Made by a program: the position numbers and the translations under genes. Shown here one piece after another: positions 30,569 through 56,447 of a stretch of 64,000 nucleotides of DNA. The DNA lies in NCBI GenBank assembly GCA_963697965.1, contig OY969108.1:34455-98454 (forward strand), in the 5' to 3' direction. The DNA comes from an uncultured delta proteobacterium. Its GTDB lineage: Bacteria; Desulfobacterota; Desulfobaccia; Desulfobaccales; 0-14-0-80-60-11. The stretch's first letter is position 1. Each line of letters begins with the position of its first letter. Under the pieces are notes generated by a model, which saw nothing but the letters and a program-made list of their open reading frames with translations, ran no database searches and had not been told where the DNA came from.

Positions 30569-30832
30569 CAGTAGTGTCCGGCAACAAAATTGCATGGAAT
30601 AGGTTACATTATCTCACTATTAAGCTCTAGCCCATGGCAATTTCAGCGATATCACCATATTATACCGATGTAACTAAATCCCCTCTCCCCTGCGAGGGGG
30701 CGAGGGAAAAAGCTTGTAAATTCCATGAATTGATTTGCCAGTGGGCATGCCTAAGCTCAAAAAGATCTCTGGTTTTGGTGGGCAGTGCCCACCCTACAGG
30801 TCTCATAGCAAAAACCCTGCCGGACACTACTG
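30569..30832. mobile_element. MITE-like element with perfect 15-bp terminal inverted repeats
   Basis: CAGTAGTGTCCGGCA (30569-30583) and TGCCGGACACTACTG (30818-30832); no transposase inside. Confidence 0.75.
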
Positions 30833-37699: not shown

Positions 37700-37984
37700 T
37701 CTAAGGGGACATGAGGCAGGCGTAGAGAATGGTTTTAACTTCGGCTTGCCCGCTAGCCATCAATTTATGTAATTGACAAACTATTTCCCTCTCCCCCTTT
37801 GGGGGGAGAGGGCAGGGTGAGGGGGGTATGAATGGTCTTGTAGGGGCGCACCCATGTGTGCGCCCGTTACGAAAGCGGGGGCAGTAGGGGCGGACACACG
37901 GGTCCGCCCCTACGAAAAAACCAGGCAAAGCCATCCTCACCCGGTGAAACACTCCCCTAGATTCGGCGCCTCACTCAGAATGAC
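37700..37984 (-). repeat. Composite REP/MITE-like element, copy (reverse)
   Basis: Same GTAGGGGCG palindromes and CCCTCACCCTGCCCTCTCCCC hairpin as the other copies. Confidence 0.85.
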
Positions 37985-41427: not shown

Positions 41428-41777
41428 CTATTGTTATGCCCCTACAATTATCTTACCAAAAGATTTGAGATAACCCCCCCCTCCCTGAGAGGGGAGGGGA
41501 ATGGTGTGAGGGGCGGTTTTGTATGGGTATTCGTAGGGGCGGACCCAAGTGTCCGCCCTGTAGGGGCGGGTTTAAAACTCGCCCCTACAATGCCCCCACT
41601 TTCGTGGGGGGCGCACACATGGGTGCGCCCCTACAAGACCATTCATGCCCCCTCACCCTGCCCTCTCCCCCAATGGGGGAGAGGGGAGAAAGCAGGAGAA
41701 CTCTACAAGTTAATCAGAGAAGATTTGGTAACCTTGATTACAAAGGCAGTTCAGCAAAAACCTTGCCGGACCCTACT
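41428..41777 (+). repeat. Composite REP/MITE-like element, copy
   Basis: Three GTAGGGGCG-type palindromes; ends in AAAAACCTTGCCGGACCCTACT. Confidence 0.85.
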
Positions 41778-41791
41778 ACCCCTGCCCGCTT

Positions 41792-42406: not shown

Positions 42407-42514
42407 GACCTGTGCCTCCTCGTTAAACAGGATGTGTTACTGAAGCGGTGGTCCCGGTGTGGCGCAGGAGCCGGCAACCTGACGGCCCTTCTCTCTTTCT
42501 AGATGTCAGGAGAT

Positions 42515-42530
42515 AGCAAGGAGTGGGCCA
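42515..42530 (-). promoter_or_regulatory. Sigma-54 (-24/-12) promoter for the GcvH-like gene
   Basis: The minus strand reads TGGCCCACTCCTTGCT (GG-N10-GC). Confidence 0.7.
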
Positions 42531-42628
42531 ACCTGGGGGGTAATTTCTTATCTATCATAAACCATTAGTAAATTAACCAGGACCATCGCCGCCCGGGATG
42601 ATTGACTATCTGGACGGAGTTGCTTTTA

Positions 42629-42742
42629 TGTTGAATAAATCAACAAAAATTTTTATCCATAGGCTATCTTATGGATATTACAATATTATTTAATGCTTAA
42701 TAATTCAACATTACCTTTTGCGTATTGTGTAAAATATCGACA
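42629..42742. promoter_or_regulatory. Three candidate enhancer (UAS) sites, TGT-N11-ACA
   Basis: TGTTGAATAAATCAACA (42629), TGCTTAATAATTCAACA (42694) and TGTGTAAAATATCGACA (42726). Confidence 0.55.
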
Positions 42743-42906
42743 CAAATAATGGTCTTCCTAGATTAATGGGGTGCTTAATATTCTTCGCTTGCATTTTCAC
42801 CGGATTCATTTTAGGTTTAGAAATTCGCCGAAAATCCGGCTTCTTTGCACAATTAACAGCGTCCTTTGTTAAAGGGCGGGAATAGACTAACAGAAAGGCG
42901 CGGACT

Positions 42907-44167: not shown

Positions 44168-44836
44168 ATGACCGATAAAAACCCGAGCCAAGAGCAAATG
44201 CTCCTGGAGCGCCTGGACCGGATGGAGGAGCAGTTGCGGACCCTGGTCAAGGCCCAGCAGGGCCTGGCGGAGTTGAAGAACGATCTCTCCCCCCTGCTGA
44301 ACTCAGCCATCAAACGCGTCATCGACGAGCTGGGGATGGTGGAGGCCGGCTTTGAATTGGAAGACATCTTCGACCTGGTGAAAAGGGGTATGCGCAGCAT
44401 CCGCAACCTCACCCAGGCCTTGGAGACGATGGAGAACCTCTTCGACCTGTGGAACGCCATGGAGCCCATGCTGAAGTCCACGGTGCCCAATCTCATCAAC
44501 TACATGGACAACCTGGAGCAGAAGGGGGTGTTCCGGACCTACTCGGCCATGCTGGAGGTCCGGGCCAAGGTGGCGCAGCACTATCCCCCCGAGGAAATCG
44601 CCGCCATGGGGGATGGCTTCGTCGTACTCCTGAGCCTCCTCAAGAAACTGTCTAAGCCCGAGATGATCGATTTTATCAACAGGCTGATGGAGCTTCCCGT
44701 GGGGCTAAATCTACAGGCCGCCAAACCGGTGGGCGCCATGGGCATGCTCTCTGCCATGGGCAACAAAGAGACCCGGCAGGGCTTGGGGGTGGCCCTGGAA
44801 CTCACCAAGGCCCTGGGCAAGCTCAAGGCCGATTAG
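44168..44836 (+). CDS. DUF1641-like protein
   Basis: Helical protein downstream of sqr; C-terminal KPVGAMGMLSAM..RQGLG..KALGK. Confidence 0.75.
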   Translation: MTDKNPSQEQMLLERLDRMEEQLRTLVKAQQGLAELKNDLSPLLNSAIKRVIDELGMVEAGFELEDIFDLVKRGMRSIRNLTQALETMENLFDLWNAMEPMLKSTVPNLINYMDNLEQKGVFRTYSAMLEVRAKVAQHYPPEEIAAMGDGFVVLLSLLKKLSKPEMIDFINRLMELPVGLNLQAAKPVGAMGMLSAMGNKETRQGLGVALELTKALGKLKAD

Positions 44837-45070
44837 GCCCAGGACTGCGGCGCCCGCGCCTTCCGGCGATATCAACATACTATACCGATGCAGGCAAATC
44901 CTATCTCCCCTGCGAGGGGTCGAAAGTGGTTGAGGGGTGTTTTCAGCGGCCATTTTACCCCCCCCCCTCACCCTGCCCTCTCCCCCCCAAAGGGGGAGAG
45001 GGAAATAACTTGTAAATTCCATTGGATATGTAGGGGCAACCCGTTGGCCAAAACTGCCGCATAATCTCAG

Positions 45071-45655
45071 GTGAACATGGCAGTAGTAAAGAGTGTCATT
45101 GTAGAAAAAAATCAAATTATCAATACATATGCCCAACTGTGGAATGTAGCAAGCTTATTCTTAGAAAAGGCCGAAGAAGATCAAACTGGTTCAACTTGGG
45201 CATCGATGGCCAGCTTAGTTTTTACAGCTTTCTCTTTGGAAGCATATTTTAATCATATCGGAGAAAAAGTTTTTAAATCTTGGAACGCCCTCGAAAACTT
45301 ACCTCCTCTAAATAAACTCGACGTGATATGCGAAAAACTCGAAATTAAATTGGATTACTCACGCAGGCCGTATCAAACAATTAAGGCATTATTCAAATTT
45401 AGAAACGAATTGGCTCATGGTAAAACCGTCAGACTATCTAACAAAGAAATTCTTAATCTAAATGTCGACATAGATAAATATCTTGGTGAACACTTGAAAG
45501 CTTGGTGGCAAAAATACTGTACGCAAGATAGTGCGGTTCGTGCTCGTGAAGATTCAGAAAAAATCATGAGACTTGTTCACGAGAGTGCCAAAATTAAAGA
45601 CGACCCTTTATTCTTTCTTGGAATTGGATCTCACTCAGCTAAAGTGACTGCTTAA
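45071..45655 (+). CDS. HEPN-like domain protein
   Basis: AFSLEAYFN helix and RNELAH (Rx4H) motif; AT-rich. Confidence 0.65.
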   Translation: MNMAVVKSVIVEKNQIINTYAQLWNVASLFLEKAEEDQTGSTWASMASLVFTAFSLEAYFNHIGEKVFKSWNALENLPPLNKLDVICEKLEIKLDYSRRPYQTIKALFKFRNELAHGKTVRLSNKEILNLNVDIDKYLGEHLKAWWQKYCTQDSAVRAREDSEKIMRLVHESAKIKDDPLFFLGIGSHSAKVTA

Positions 45656-45797
45656 GGCAAATCCTCTTTCTCCCTCATTTCCAGGGCTGTGACCCGGCGC
45701 TCCATTCTAATTTTTATGGGCCAAGAACCATTTTTTACTGCGGAGGCCAAGGCTGCGGCAATGTCTGTTAATACTTATTTTTATAAGGGCGTGGCTT

Positions 45798-46470
45798 ATG
45801 TTTTGGGAATCAGTTTCTAAAGGGCTTTATGTTCTAACTTTCTGGCAGGCTTATGTTGCCTTTTTAATTTATTTTTTCCTTAGTGTCACACCCTTAATTA
45901 TATCCTATTCTATTATAAGAAACTTTGAAGCAGCGGGTTGCTTGGGGACATTGTTACAACCTTTTTTTTATGCTTTTGCCACTTGGGTATTTGTTTTAAC
46001 CATGGCACCAATTTTATTAGGCTTATCTGGAAAAGCCGCCTGGTCATTTCCATGGATAATTCTAATTGATAATCCATGGTGGACCATAAAGATTGTAGGA
46101 GTAATTCTTTTGGTGAGTATTGCCATTGCTGCTTTCATCCCTATCATTGGCGTGATGCCATCCGTGCAAACCTTGGTCTCAGGCACTATATCCATTATGT
46201 CAGTGCTTGGCCTAATTGACCAAATAAGACCTGATTTAAATATATCTAATATTTCTTTATTTCCTGGCTATTTGTATATGGTTGGCTTTTTGCTCATATC
46301 TGGAATTACTTTACGAGTTGGACTATTCATTACTACCTGTTCTTGTGTCTTTAATTGGTGATGAGTCCATGGGCATGATTCAGTTTATTGCCTTTTCTCT
46401 TGGGGGGCTATTTGGTTTCATGCCACTTTTCATTTATGCTGCCTGGCTGGGTTGCCAAATAGCACATTAA
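45798..46470 (+). CDS. Multi-pass membrane hypothetical protein, apparent frameshift near 46335
   Basis: Hydrophobic ORF 45798-46361 continues in another frame (VLVSLIGDES..YAAWLG) to 46470. Confidence 0.55.
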
Positions 46471-46706
46471 TCTACCCCATTTTCAAGAATGTGAGTTTGT
46501 TTCGTAATAAAAATAATTACCCAATAATTAGCTAGTGGGCACGCCTAAGTTCCAACAATTCTCCGCTGCCTGCCTCATAGCCTAAACCTTGCCGGACACT
46601 ACTACCCCGCCGTTTTCAAATGGGGTAAAATCGATCATTTTCATGGGATAGTCGATCGCGGCACAGACTAGGGCTAATATCTCATATCTGGAAGAGGAAG
46701 AGCATC

Positions 46707-47501
46707 ATGTTGGATATCAAAGACGCGGTGGCGGTCATTACCGGGGGAGCGGGAGGCATTGGCGCGGAGCTGGCCAGGTACTGGGTGCGGCAGGGAGGCA
46801 AGGTGGTGATCTCGGACGTCAGCGCCGCCGGGTTGAGCCGGGTTGCGGCTGAGATCCAGGCCATGGGCGGCCAGGTGGCCACCCTGGCCGCTGATACCAC
46901 CCGCGAGGAGGATTGCTCCAGGCTGGCGGACCTGGCCATTGAGAAGTTTGGCCACCTCAACCTGGTGGCCCCGGCCGCCGGCATCATCCGGGATGGCCTG
47001 ATGGTAGCCACTGACCGGGAAACTGGCAAGGTCGCCAAGAAAATGTCCCTGGCGGACTTCCAGGCAGTCATCGACATCAACCTCACCGGGGTCTTTCTCA
47101 CGGTCCGGGAGTGTGCGGCGCGCATGATCGACCATGGCTGCCAGGGGCTCATCTGCCTGTTTTCCTCCACCGGTTCCCTGGGCACCGCCGGTCAGATCAA
47201 TTATGCTTCCACCAAGGCGGCCATGAGCGTGATGCCCAAAGTGATCACCGCCGAGTTCTGCCGCCGCGGCCTGGCGGCCCAAATCCGCTGCGTGGCCATT
47301 GCCCCGGGTTATGTGGGCACTCCCATGGTTAAGGGCATGGATCAGAAGGCCCTGGGGAAAATCCTGGAACAGGTCCCCATCGGCCGCCTCGTTGAGCCTT
47401 CAGAAGTCGCCTCACTTATCGGGGAGATTTATCGCAACGAAGCCATCGCCGGGGAGACCTTTTTCATCCACGGCGGCCTGCGCCTTGGATCCAAAGGATA
47501 A
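46707..47501 (+). CDS. SDR oxidoreductase (FabG-like)
   Basis: TGGAGGIG and YASTK motifs. Confidence 0.9.
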   Translation: MLDIKDAVAVITGGAGGIGAELARYWVRQGGKVVISDVSAAGLSRVAAEIQAMGGQVATLAADTTREEDCSRLADLAIEKFGHLNLVAPAAGIIRDGLMVATDRETGKVAKKMSLADFQAVIDINLTGVFLTVRECAARMIDHGCQGLICLFSSTGSLGTAGQINYASTKAAMSVMPKVITAEFCRRGLAAQIRCVAIAPGYVGTPMVKGMDQKALGKILEQVPIGRLVEPSEVASLIGEIYRNEAIAGETFFIHGGLRLGSKG

Positions 47502-56139: not shown

Positions 56140-56447
56140 CAGTAGTGTTCGGCAAGGTTTTTGCGACGAGGCAGGCACAGGATGAGGGGGGTACGAACTG
56201 TCTTGTAGGGGCGCACCCATGTGTGCGCCCCTTACGAAAGTGGGGGCAGTAGGTAGGGGCGGGTCTTAAACCCGCCCCTACAGGGCGGACACATGGGTCC
56301 GCCCCTACGAAAAACCAGGCAAAGCCACCCCTCACCCGGTGTCGTTCCCTTTCAGGGGGAGGGGAATTAGAGGGCATCGGTATAATATATTGATATTACT
56401 TAAATTACCATGGCCTAGATTATAACTGAGAGATTTAGGGTAATTTT
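56140..56447 (-). repeat. Composite REP/MITE-like element, copy (reverse)
   Basis: End CAGTAGTGTTCGGCA, three GTAG palindromes and CATCGGTATAATAT. Confidence 0.85.

Follow-up and report, generated by a model that had tools for sequence, protein, structure and literature searches.

A two-gene islet with IS1380-type end motifs replaces part of a REP module inside a truncated MITE in a Desulfobaccales genome

In a 64,000-nucleotide stretch of DNA from an uncultured delta proteobacterium of the Desulfobaccales (positions 34455-98454 of the single 3.45-Mb contig OY969108.1, assembly GCA_963697965.1; hereafter the window, in whose own coordinates positions are given unless the genome is named), one copy of an intergenic repeat is interrupted by about 1.5 kb of AT-rich DNA that encodes a protein with a predicted HEPN fold (open reading frame 1, ORF1) and a membrane protein (ORF2). 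We found that the repeat is the stump of a miniature inverted-repeat transposable element (MITE) with a single inverted end, and that the AT-rich islet took the place of part of a repetitive extragenic palindromic (REP) module nested within that stump, in the lineage of this genome only. Each of the two genes is preceded by a right-end motif of the IS1380 family of insertion sequences (IS), and these leftover ends suggest that an ordinary IS, not the repeat, brought the islet in. With somewhat more confidence than doubt, we take the best explanation of the whole to be that a foreign islet carried by an IS1380-family element replaced part of a REP within the MITE stump; the repeat itself was very probably a passive and harmless landing pad, not the vehicle.

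An AT-rich islet splits a one-ended MITE remnant

The islet is most readily seen from the spacing of two motifs of the repeat. The copy at 30569-30832 has 14 nt between CTTGTAAATTCCAT and the GTGGGCATGCCTAAG that follows it, and a reverse copy near 37730-37790 (~37750) has 13 nt between the same two motifs. In the filled copy CTTGTAAATTCCAT ends at 45022 and AGTGGGCACGCCTAAG begins at 46534, with ~1.5 kb between them, and this intermotif DNA has a GC content of 38.5% (measured on 45041-46505) versus 58.5% for the genome. Chance cannot account for such an arrangement. The islet proper is ~1.47 kb long, from 45041 to about 46520, and its site is the spacer separating a DUF1641 gene from a short-chain dehydrogenase gene.

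All features of the locus lie on the forward strand. The left part of the MITE remnant (44861-45022) matches positions 78-158 of the intact 264-bp copy, ends in CTTGTAAATTCCAT and gives way to the remnant of a REP-hairpin module (TGGATATGTAGGGGCAAC, 45023-45040), which consists of the module start and the 5′ arm of the hairpin. There follow a truncated IS1380-family right inverted repeat (IRR) motif that faces ORF1 (45042-45071, found with an nhmmer profile); ORF1 (45077-45655), which encodes a HEPN-fold protein of 192 amino acids with RNELAH at residues 109-114; a second IRR motif of IS1380 type, full length with a decayed tip, that faces ORF2 (45719-45769, found with nhmmer and blastn-short); and ORF2 (45798-46470), which encodes a six-helix membrane protein of an unnamed family and whose extent follows homologues and short-read contigs. 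The right tail of the islet and the right junction (46471-46522) lead into the right part of the MITE remnant (46523-46604), with the right inverted end TGCCGGACACTACTA at 46590-46604. On the left the break lies at the end of the 5′ arm of the REP hairpin, after GTAGGGGCAAC (45030-45040). On the right it lies between about 46513 and 46522: alignment to the empty copy in a close relative (G009, below) is firm again from AATAATTAGCT (46523) onwards and may already begin at TAATTACCC (46514). Both junctions show short overlaps, with AATAATTA present twice at the right and with GCAAC/CCGTTGG at the left resembling a REP variant and the IRR motif alike.

Much of this had been described in an earlier note made from the letters of the window, and its descriptive claims proved accurate: the spacing of 13-15 nt in other copies versus ~1.5 kb here; the AT-rich insert with an RNELAH-containing ORF (45077-45655) and a multi-transmembrane ORF (from 45798); the HEPN-like nature of the first protein, for which a structure search (top seven rows) and the invariance of R109 and H114 now speak; the terminal inverted repeat TGCCGGACACTACT at 46590-46603, which is the right inverted end of the MITE family; the REP half-site GTAGGGGCAAC (45030-45040) at the left junction, which is the 5′ arm of the REP hairpin; and the existence of empty and filled forms of one repeat, seen in two relatives (G009 and G012) whose locus has the element minus 1.5 kb. 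Three points are absent from that note, namely that the copy has no left inverted end, that the reading frame of ORF2 is shifted at 46340 and that an IS1380-type end motif stands before each ORF.

The repeat belongs to a family of genuine MITEs. The intact 264-bp copy (30569-30832) is bounded by CAGTAGTGTCCGGCA and TGCCGGACACTACTG, and a scan of the genome for the 15-nt end CAGTAGTGTCCGGCA, with no more than 2 mismatches, gave 32 left termini and 34 right ones, among them 16 adjacent left-right pairs of 63-508 bp. When the 7-bp flanks were read one base out from the typed end, they were identical at six or more of seven positions in 11 of the 16 pairs, compared with a mean of 0.67 and a maximum of 4 pairs in 2,000 flank shuffles; because so many pairs have matching flanks, we conclude that the family transposes with a 7-bp target duplication. 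Termini of the family lie in the window at 30569-30832, 41764-41778, 46590-46604 and 56140-56154, with more genome-wide, and nested REP hairpins have enlarged the MITE interiors to 226-508 bp. The filled copy has the right terminus only (46590-46604) and lacks the two ends and target duplication of a complete element: the terminus scan found no left terminus within 15 kb upstream, and the copy lacks roughly the first 70 nt of the element, its sequence taking up immediately downstream of the region of the DUF1641 stop codon. With one inverted end only, it cannot move as a MITE. Its cargo is single-copy in the genome.

Because repeats are classic misassembly points, an assembly artefact, in which a chimeric join put unrelated AT-rich DNA between repeat copies, has to be considered. 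The stretch is present in eight soil-metagenome runs from two studies, and we compared Logan contigs from four of these eight runs with positions 44700-46800, bearing in mind that the runs may include the sample behind the genome assembly and are not fully independent of it. Contigs matched 44811-46394 (X2), 45024-46800 (X1) and 44995-46377 (X5) without other letters. Both junctions are real, because short-read contigs from four runs and two studies bridge them in this way, and a chimeric join can be given practically no credence. Single-letter differences, which might be held in favour of such an artefact, were confined to one letter fewer at 46340 (four of four runs) and at the poly-C at 44958 (two of four runs); they suggest residual single-base assembly errors, the T at 46340 being likely either such an error or a rare variant. 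In one X2 contig, which comes from a relative that like G005 is free of the repeat, 44854 is connected to 46703 via 38 other letters.

Empty orthologues reveal the order of events

In a DNA search, each of the 14 other genomes of the genus proved to have the flanking genes. G009 and G012 stand nearest at this locus, their DUF1641 gene being 95.5% identical and their dehydrogenase gene 96.6-96.7%; the other relatives (G007, G005, G013 and the rest) show 91-94% at the flanking genes. At the same site G009 and G012 carry the same left-truncated MITE with an intact 93-nt REP module and no islet, and the right part of the remnant in the source genome is about 96-97% like their copies. G005 has only ~20 nt where the repeat would be, and in G007 and G013 the spacer is unrelated and about 330-360 nt long. 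Measured against G009, ~65-75 nt of the REP module have been replaced by ~1.47 kb in the source genome. Because the two closest relatives have the same remnant in empty form at this site, the one-ended remnant predates the cargo, and the nesting order is MITE, then REP module, then islet, the last in the source lineage only. On this order, a MITE inserted first and had already been truncated in the common ancestor of the source genome and its two closest relatives; a REP module entered after TTGTAAATTCCAT; and the islet arrived last.

Some IS families target REPs, and REP modules have entered the repeat more than once at the very point that the islet occupies. In the paralogous copies at genome positions 419733-420032 and 570279-570785, ...AATTCnAT and AAATAATTAGCT are separated by a 93-nt module, and these intact modules (419816-419907 and 570361-570453) occupy the same position as the module remnant of the filled copy. 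An intact module has the pattern TGGATATGTrGGGGCGAC AGTGG CACAGGCTTCCAGCCTGTG ... GTCGCCCC ... CCCTTG and folds as a nested hairpin (TGGATATGTAGGGGCGAC AGTGG CACAGGCTTCCAGCCTGTG ATCGG GTCGTCCC ...) followed by a tail. At this point two further copies contain different REP variants, 85-88 nt long. The motif-spacing scan was loose and gave many chance matches to the left motif, and we therefore counted copies with both motifs at most 100 nt apart together with copies read by eye; in that tally eight copies have 13-15 nt at this point, four have a REP insert of 85-93 nt and one, the filled copy, has a kilobase insert. Of the module, the filled copy still has 18 nt from the start (45023-45040) and may also have ~9 nt from the end.

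REP palindromes of the G+C-rich GTAGGGGCG...CGCCCCTAC type occur in many copies in this genome, nested in mosaic intergenic repeats. Candidate REP-associated tyrosine transposases (RAYTs) are three Y1_Tnp-like ORFs whose scores of 21.9-23.2 bits fall around the 23-bit cut-off and are borderline. In G012 and G009 (L094, L095) an extra REP insertion of ~50 nt (GTAGGrGCGG...GCCGCCC), which the source genome does not have, sits in the MITE hairpin CCCCTGCGAGGGG of the left part; from this we conclude that REPs keep entering hairpin loops of the MITE. In its many nested G+C-rich palindromes and candidate RAYT genes the locus is like the nested insertion sites of bacterial interspersed mosaic elements (BIMEs) built from REPs and of REP doublets forming hairpins (REPINs), for which excerpts of PMC2817692 and PMC3116915 give the background. 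It differs from them in that the inserted DNA is a two-gene islet with no intact IS and in that the REP has lost its 3′ arm.

Right ends of an IS1380-family element precede both genes

Short blastn matches of the cargo converged on a 46-nt motif, AAAACCATTTTTGACTGCGGTGGCCAAGGTTCCCGCATAATCTCGG, which terminates three near-identical insertion sequences of 1.61 kb that share the same 15-nt terminus. Their product is a DDE_Tnp_1_4 (IS1380-family) transposase (E 3.8e-123 on the intact 438-amino-acid version), of which tblastn found five full-length copies in the genome and six fragmentary matches at five sites. A profile of 56 positions, built for nhmmer from 22 distinct copies of the motif outside the islet, gave 48 genome matches at E < 1e-3, two of them inside the islet. 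The first (45042-45071) covers model positions 26-55 of 56 with a genome-wide E of 4.8e-5, and its tip, at 45070, is seven nt before the ATG of ORF1; it is truncated where it meets the REP arm, having lost its inner ~25 positions together with a -35-like hexamer. The second, at 38 nt from the start of ORF2, was matched by the profile over 45719-45760 (model positions 3-45, genome-wide E 5.2e-6). Each of the two is an IS1380-family right end that faces the captured DNA at its boundary. By pattern match only, the motif resembles an outward sigma-70 promoter, TTGACT-N19-CATAAT, and the CATAAT of the first islet motif is at 45060-45065.

ISEcp1 uses alternative (surrogate) right ends and supplies an IS-borne promoter. 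In this genome, too, IS1380-family elements carry neighbouring DNA with them. A unit of 2,398 nt is present at genome positions 3321507-3323903 (L091 301-2697) and 1388481-1390878 (L092), the two copies being 99.96% identical. It begins with an IS left end and runs through the 1,612-bp IS, which has an IRR of its own, and a further 785 bp in which a PilZ-domain ORF lies (E 6.2e-6), to a second IRR-type end; its copies are flanked by the 5-bp duplications GTAAC/GTAAC and TTCAA/TTCAA. This ISEcp1-style transposition unit has moved at least once, and its duplications correspond to the 5-bp repeats that flank transposition units of ISEcp1, itself a member of the IS1380 family, in the portion of PMC9429958 that deals with them. 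Like such units, the islet has an IS1380-family right end that abuts and faces a captured gene, with a further IRR-like sequence downstream. Unlike them, it has no transposase, left end or duplication left, its first IRR is truncated, no distal IRR-like end is shown, the cargo is no resistance gene and the host is an environmental Desulfobaccales bacterium.

The motif has a distribution of its own in the genome. Its 48 matches far outnumber the five full-length transposase genes, and its core is an imperfect palindrome. It often lies at most 45 nt upstream of an ORF start, including those of glmS-like and bacterioferritin-like genes, many of these ORFs being unverified. At genome positions 236208-236247 the left and right IS1380 ends stand back to back in a 40-bp mini-element that is a perfect palindrome (CCGAGATTATGCGG...CCGCATAATCTCGG). 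Elsewhere (L118, genome 253800-258200) two IRR motifs in the same orientation lie 1.47 kb apart, each before genes; the genes there encode a DUF6586 protein with RDHSTH, an unnamed 203-amino-acid protein, a low-molecular-weight phosphatase and an unnamed 152-amino-acid protein. A third IRR-like end at the right edge of the islet was considered and dropped, as it came down to a 10-nt seed resemblance (CCATTTTCAA) with no profile match.

ORF1 is predicted to encode a solitary HEPN-fold ribonuclease

ORF1 belongs to a patchily distributed family. A word-indexed search returned 15 family members including ORF1, all unnamed, and a scan of metagenomes confirmed 97 relatives among 270 candidates, with 80 loci kept. 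Five of 61 related genomes, counting the source genome (G000), have a match, and none of the 14 other genomes of the genus does. Residues E55, N59, H60, R109, N110, H114 and G115, among others, are invariant in all 15 aligned members, giving the motif RNxxAHG. As set out in an excerpt of PMC3710099, HEPN domains have an Rx4-6H motif with a polar residue after the arginine, at the end of helix 3. In the AlphaFold2 (AF2) model of ORF1 (predicted local distance difference test, pLDDT, 89.1; predicted template-modelling score, pTM, 0.82), RNELAH closes the helix formed by residues 99-113, with R109, N110 and H114 the invariant residues of the motif, and the invariant acidic E55 lies in the helix of residues 40-65, as expected of helix 2 of a HEPN domain.

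Comparison of the model with known structures points the same way. HEPN domains occupy the top seven rows of a wide VIA structural search, with Z from 11.3 to 9.8, and share with the model a four-helix bundle: 3o10 (Z 11.3, root-mean-square deviation (rmsd) 3.0, 125 residues aligned), 4nqf (11.3), 2hsb (11.0), 5yep (10.5), 1ufb (10.3), 1wol (10.0) and 7ae2 (9.8). Csm6, AbiA-CTD, LsoA, AbiV and HepS appear in lower rows. An Atlas cluster named RiboL-PSP-HEPN is a near-full-length structural neighbour, with template-modelling (TM) scores of 0.87/0.78, and sub-threshold Pfam matches recur across the family (PF18735 in 11 of 15 members, best E 9.8e-5; PF18737 in 10 of 15, best E 3.2e-5). Three observations weigh against a HEPN assignment. 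Helical bundles with Z < 13 in the VIA search can match by a common arrangement; Foldseek against the PDB gave no match at E <= 0.001, its best rows being HEPN proteins; and the Pfam scores of ORF1 itself are below the curated cut-offs (PF18737 at 19.3 bits against 26.8, PF18735 at 17.9 against 28.4). Taking model and invariant residues together, we accept for ORF1 a modelled HEPN fold with an intact catalytic motif, leave it outside any named Pfam family, and predict that its product is a HEPN-superfamily RNase that works independently of metal and stands closest to the RiboL-PSP and MAE_28990 groups.

With RiboL-PSP-HEPN (PF18735) and MAE_28990-like (PF18737) proteins ORF1 shares the four-helix fold, an Rx4H motif with asparagine after the arginine and an upstream conserved glutamate. 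It differs from them as a solo protein of ~190 amino acids that has no L-PSP fusion and has short beta strands at both ends. The ParB and methylase neighbours given for these groups in the excerpted text of PMC3710099 are absent from the recurrent neighbours in 82 ORF1 loci. A conserved partner gene for ORF1 was sought in these 82 loci and set aside, only rimO (6 loci, lineage-specific) and a membrane protein (5 loci) recurring. A search of 50,697 phage records gave no match to ORF1; seven plasmids carry distant relatives of 26-30% identity.

The nearest relative of ORF1 is on a metagenome contig of 3,686 nt (L010), with 86% amino acid identity and 89.6% nucleotide identity over 45074-45662 only. 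This match runs from 3 nt past the IRR tip to 7 nt past the stop codon; on these limits ORF1 appears to be a discrete captured unit, the matching segment being the gene itself. The L010 homologue sits in a different AT-rich island, beside a 174-amino-acid ORF and a 181-amino-acid membrane ORF; on its flanks the island has GC-rich REP-like palindromes, again of the GTAGGGGCG type. In a related genome of the same order (G047, L004 1465-2941) the ORF1 homologue is split at FKF|RNxxAHG by ~930 nt that we take, by eye, to be an insertion with an IS1595-type zinc-ribbon transposase. A possible kinship between ORF1 and the DUF6586 protein that stands behind another IRR motif (L118) was dropped at an hhalign probability of 0.2.

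ORF2 encodes a six-helix membrane protein

As written in the window, ORF2 reads 187 amino acids (45798-46361), and a conserved C-terminal helix, FGFIPLFIYGAWLG, lies in another frame (46282-46470). The gene is split into two frames because of one extra T at 46340: its homologues are 214-229 amino acids long and align to both pieces, and removal of that T leaves an open frame of 223 amino acids that aligns to residues 1-225 of P0018. The reading of ORF2 as a pseudogene was dropped, the extra T being missing from contigs of four of four short-read runs, and the gene is probably intact in the population.

Hydropathy indicates about six membrane helices. Nine relatives were found in genome collections, in very different phyla and with no constant neighbour, in variable regions beside toxin-antitoxin, methylase, ATPase and transposase genes. 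P0017 (87%, on a 903-bp contig) and P0019 (on a 59.7-kb contig) are also relatives of ORF2. Searches for named families gave chance-level matches in NCBIfam and PHROGs and none in Pfam or PADLOC. A model of the ORF2 family (pLDDT 85.2) matched CysZ (3tx3_B) with a Z of 8.8, middling by the standards of the tool (rmsd 4.2, 177 residues aligned), and the choline-transporter-like proteins PNS1 (Z 8.1) and CTL1 (Z 7.7), with the next row at 4.8. We regard a CysZ-like fold as a lead, not an assignment: the modelled fold of the family may be like that of CysZ/EI24-like (3tx3) and choline-transporter-like proteins, the next match being far lower, and ORF2 differs from CysZ/EI24-like proteins in having neither a sequence-family match nor a sulfate-assimilation context. 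The Atlas was set aside as a source of a name for ORF2, its best scores being 0.79.

The two genes were not found together elsewhere

That ORF1 and ORF2 might form a two-gene defence module, as had been proposed from the sequence, does not agree with their occurrence elsewhere. No relative of ORF2 was found at the 80 metagenome ORF1 loci (40 of which have 800 nt or more of downstream sequence, and 57 that much on one or both sides) or at the five ORF1 loci from related genomes, and none of nine ORF2 loci had a relative of ORF1 at E < 0.1. In G015 and G022 an ORF1 gene lies, without ORF2, between a membrane-protein gene and rimO. PADLOC-DB 2.0 returned no family at E <= 1 for ORF1, ORF2 or the ORF2 tail. 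Because the two genes co-occur nowhere else in the loci searched, they are not a conserved module; they are probably two unrelated single-gene units that were separately acquired and are separately expressed, not a toxin and its partner.

Elsewhere in the window, a further short AT-rich stretch (42500-42900, GC 0.30-0.37) lies upstream of a gene for a 415-amino-acid oxidoreductase-like protein.

How the islet could have arrived

The arrangement that the earlier note favoured, in which the MITE/REP element itself captured the genes and served as an integrase-free vehicle for a HEPN and membrane-protein defence module, has the attraction that the cargo lies exactly between two parts of one repeat, with a REP arm at the left junction, and that the family is a real MITE with target duplications in a genome with three weak matches to Y1 (RAYT-like) transposases. 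The stump, however, has one inverted end, and stands empty at the same site in G009 and G012; its cargo is single-copy; and the MITE flanks are found at 0 of 96 foreign ORF1 or ORF2 loci. Other filled copies did not turn up either: the genome has only this one copy with a kilobase insert, and among the matches listed for the 14 other genomes of the genus, every left and right motif that could be paired lies 3-9 or 48-78 nt from its partner and no copy is filled. As ORF1 and ORF2 are also never together elsewhere and have no PADLOC match, we judge capture by the repeat, which each test that was run contradicts, to be extremely unlikely, and its supposed independence of an integrase overlooks the two IS1380-family end motifs in the islet. 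Only slightly more credible, and still very unlikely, is an event of the REP/RAYT kind, in which cleavage of the hairpin by a Y1 transposase, at the base of the 5′ arm, made the point to which foreign single-stranded DNA became attached. It would account for the left break at the end of that arm (GTAGGGGCAAC|), and REP modules have repeatedly entered the same point and other hairpins of this MITE family in a genome that has three Y1_Tnp-like ORFs near the cut-off. Against it, those matches are borderline, the 3′ arm was deleted instead of being retained and the IS1380 motifs are left unexplained; we know of no precedent for kilobase cargo joined by RAYTs, although no search was aimed at one.

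An ISEcp1-like transposition unit whose transposase was later lost seems to us the likeliest carrier, on the grounds that an IRR motif stands before each ORF and that the 2,398-bp unit offers a precedent in the same genome, although for this part of the account belief and doubt are evenly balanced. Such a unit, of the form left inverted repeat (IRL)-transposase-IRR-ORF1-IRR′-ORF2, would have landed in the AT-rich tail of the REP module, and the transposase would then have been lost in a single deletion that reached from the REP arm to within the first IRR. Several observations count against this account. Neither transposase nor left-end sequence was found beside the islet, the five full-length transposase copies being elsewhere in the genome; no 5-bp duplication is visible around the islet, and the event reads as a replacement; and nhmmer found no IRR-like end at the right edge at E <= 100. 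Because transposase, left IS end and duplication are all missing at the locus, the transposition step is one that we infer and do not observe. The IRR motif occurs in none of 87 foreign ORF1 loci. Most of its 48 copies in this genome are solo, several of them fronting housekeeping-looking genes, so that the islet motifs could be baggage or independent mini-elements. A consensus promoter scan, which allows only 16-18-nt spacers, found nothing upstream of ORF1 or ORF2, and ORF1 may lack a promoter because its motif is without the -35-like part.

The chief alternative is a route without any transposition at this site, by which a pre-assembled IRR-ORF1-IRR′-ORF2 segment from another Desulfobaccales strain would have been pasted in by recombination, whether illegitimate and microhomology-mediated or homologous via the repeat flanks after DNA uptake, with the motifs as baggage of the donor. 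The loss of ~65-75 nt of the REP module with no target duplication fits a replacement; both junctions have short, ambiguous overlaps; repeats abundant across the genus offer plenty of homology; and no IRR-like right end was detected. Recombination nonetheless requires a donor with the same arrangement, and none was found, the context of the ORF1 relative on L010 being different and having neither ORF2 nor the motif; the genome, moreover, demonstrably moves IS1380 units with passenger DNA. We consider recombination of this kind possible but rather unlikely, and continue to favour carriage by an IS1380-family element.

Discussion

The locus is a clean before-and-after series, from a site with no repeat, through one with the repeat and its REP hairpin, to the same repeat with an islet, and it illustrates how layered intergenic repeats serve as neutral docking sites for foreign genes in an environmental lineage resembling sulfate reducers. 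The islet can be likened to a decayed ISEcp1 transposition unit lodged in REP and MITE DNA. Events of this sort are familiar, the host being what is unusual about the present case, and no new class of element or defence system is required. A likely single-base assembly error has been corrected along the way, and two uncharacterised and patchily distributed protein families have been flagged, one of solo HEPN proteins of ~190 amino acids and one of membrane proteins of ~225 amino acids with a possibly CysZ-like fold.

If an IS1380-family unit was indeed the carrier, capture in the style of ISEcp1, which is best known from clinical resistance genes, is at work in this environmental lineage. A broader speculation, which we think improbable as it stands, is that IS1380 right ends in the Desulfobaccales act as portable, promoter-bearing borders of gene cassettes, that serial one-ended transposition builds IRR-gene-IRR-gene arrays and that REP hairpins nested in MITE remnants are their preferred and harmless landing pads. 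Were this so, loss of the transposase would leave behind integrase-free cassettes equipped with promoters, such as a solo HEPN RNase and a CysZ-like protein, that may serve in defence.

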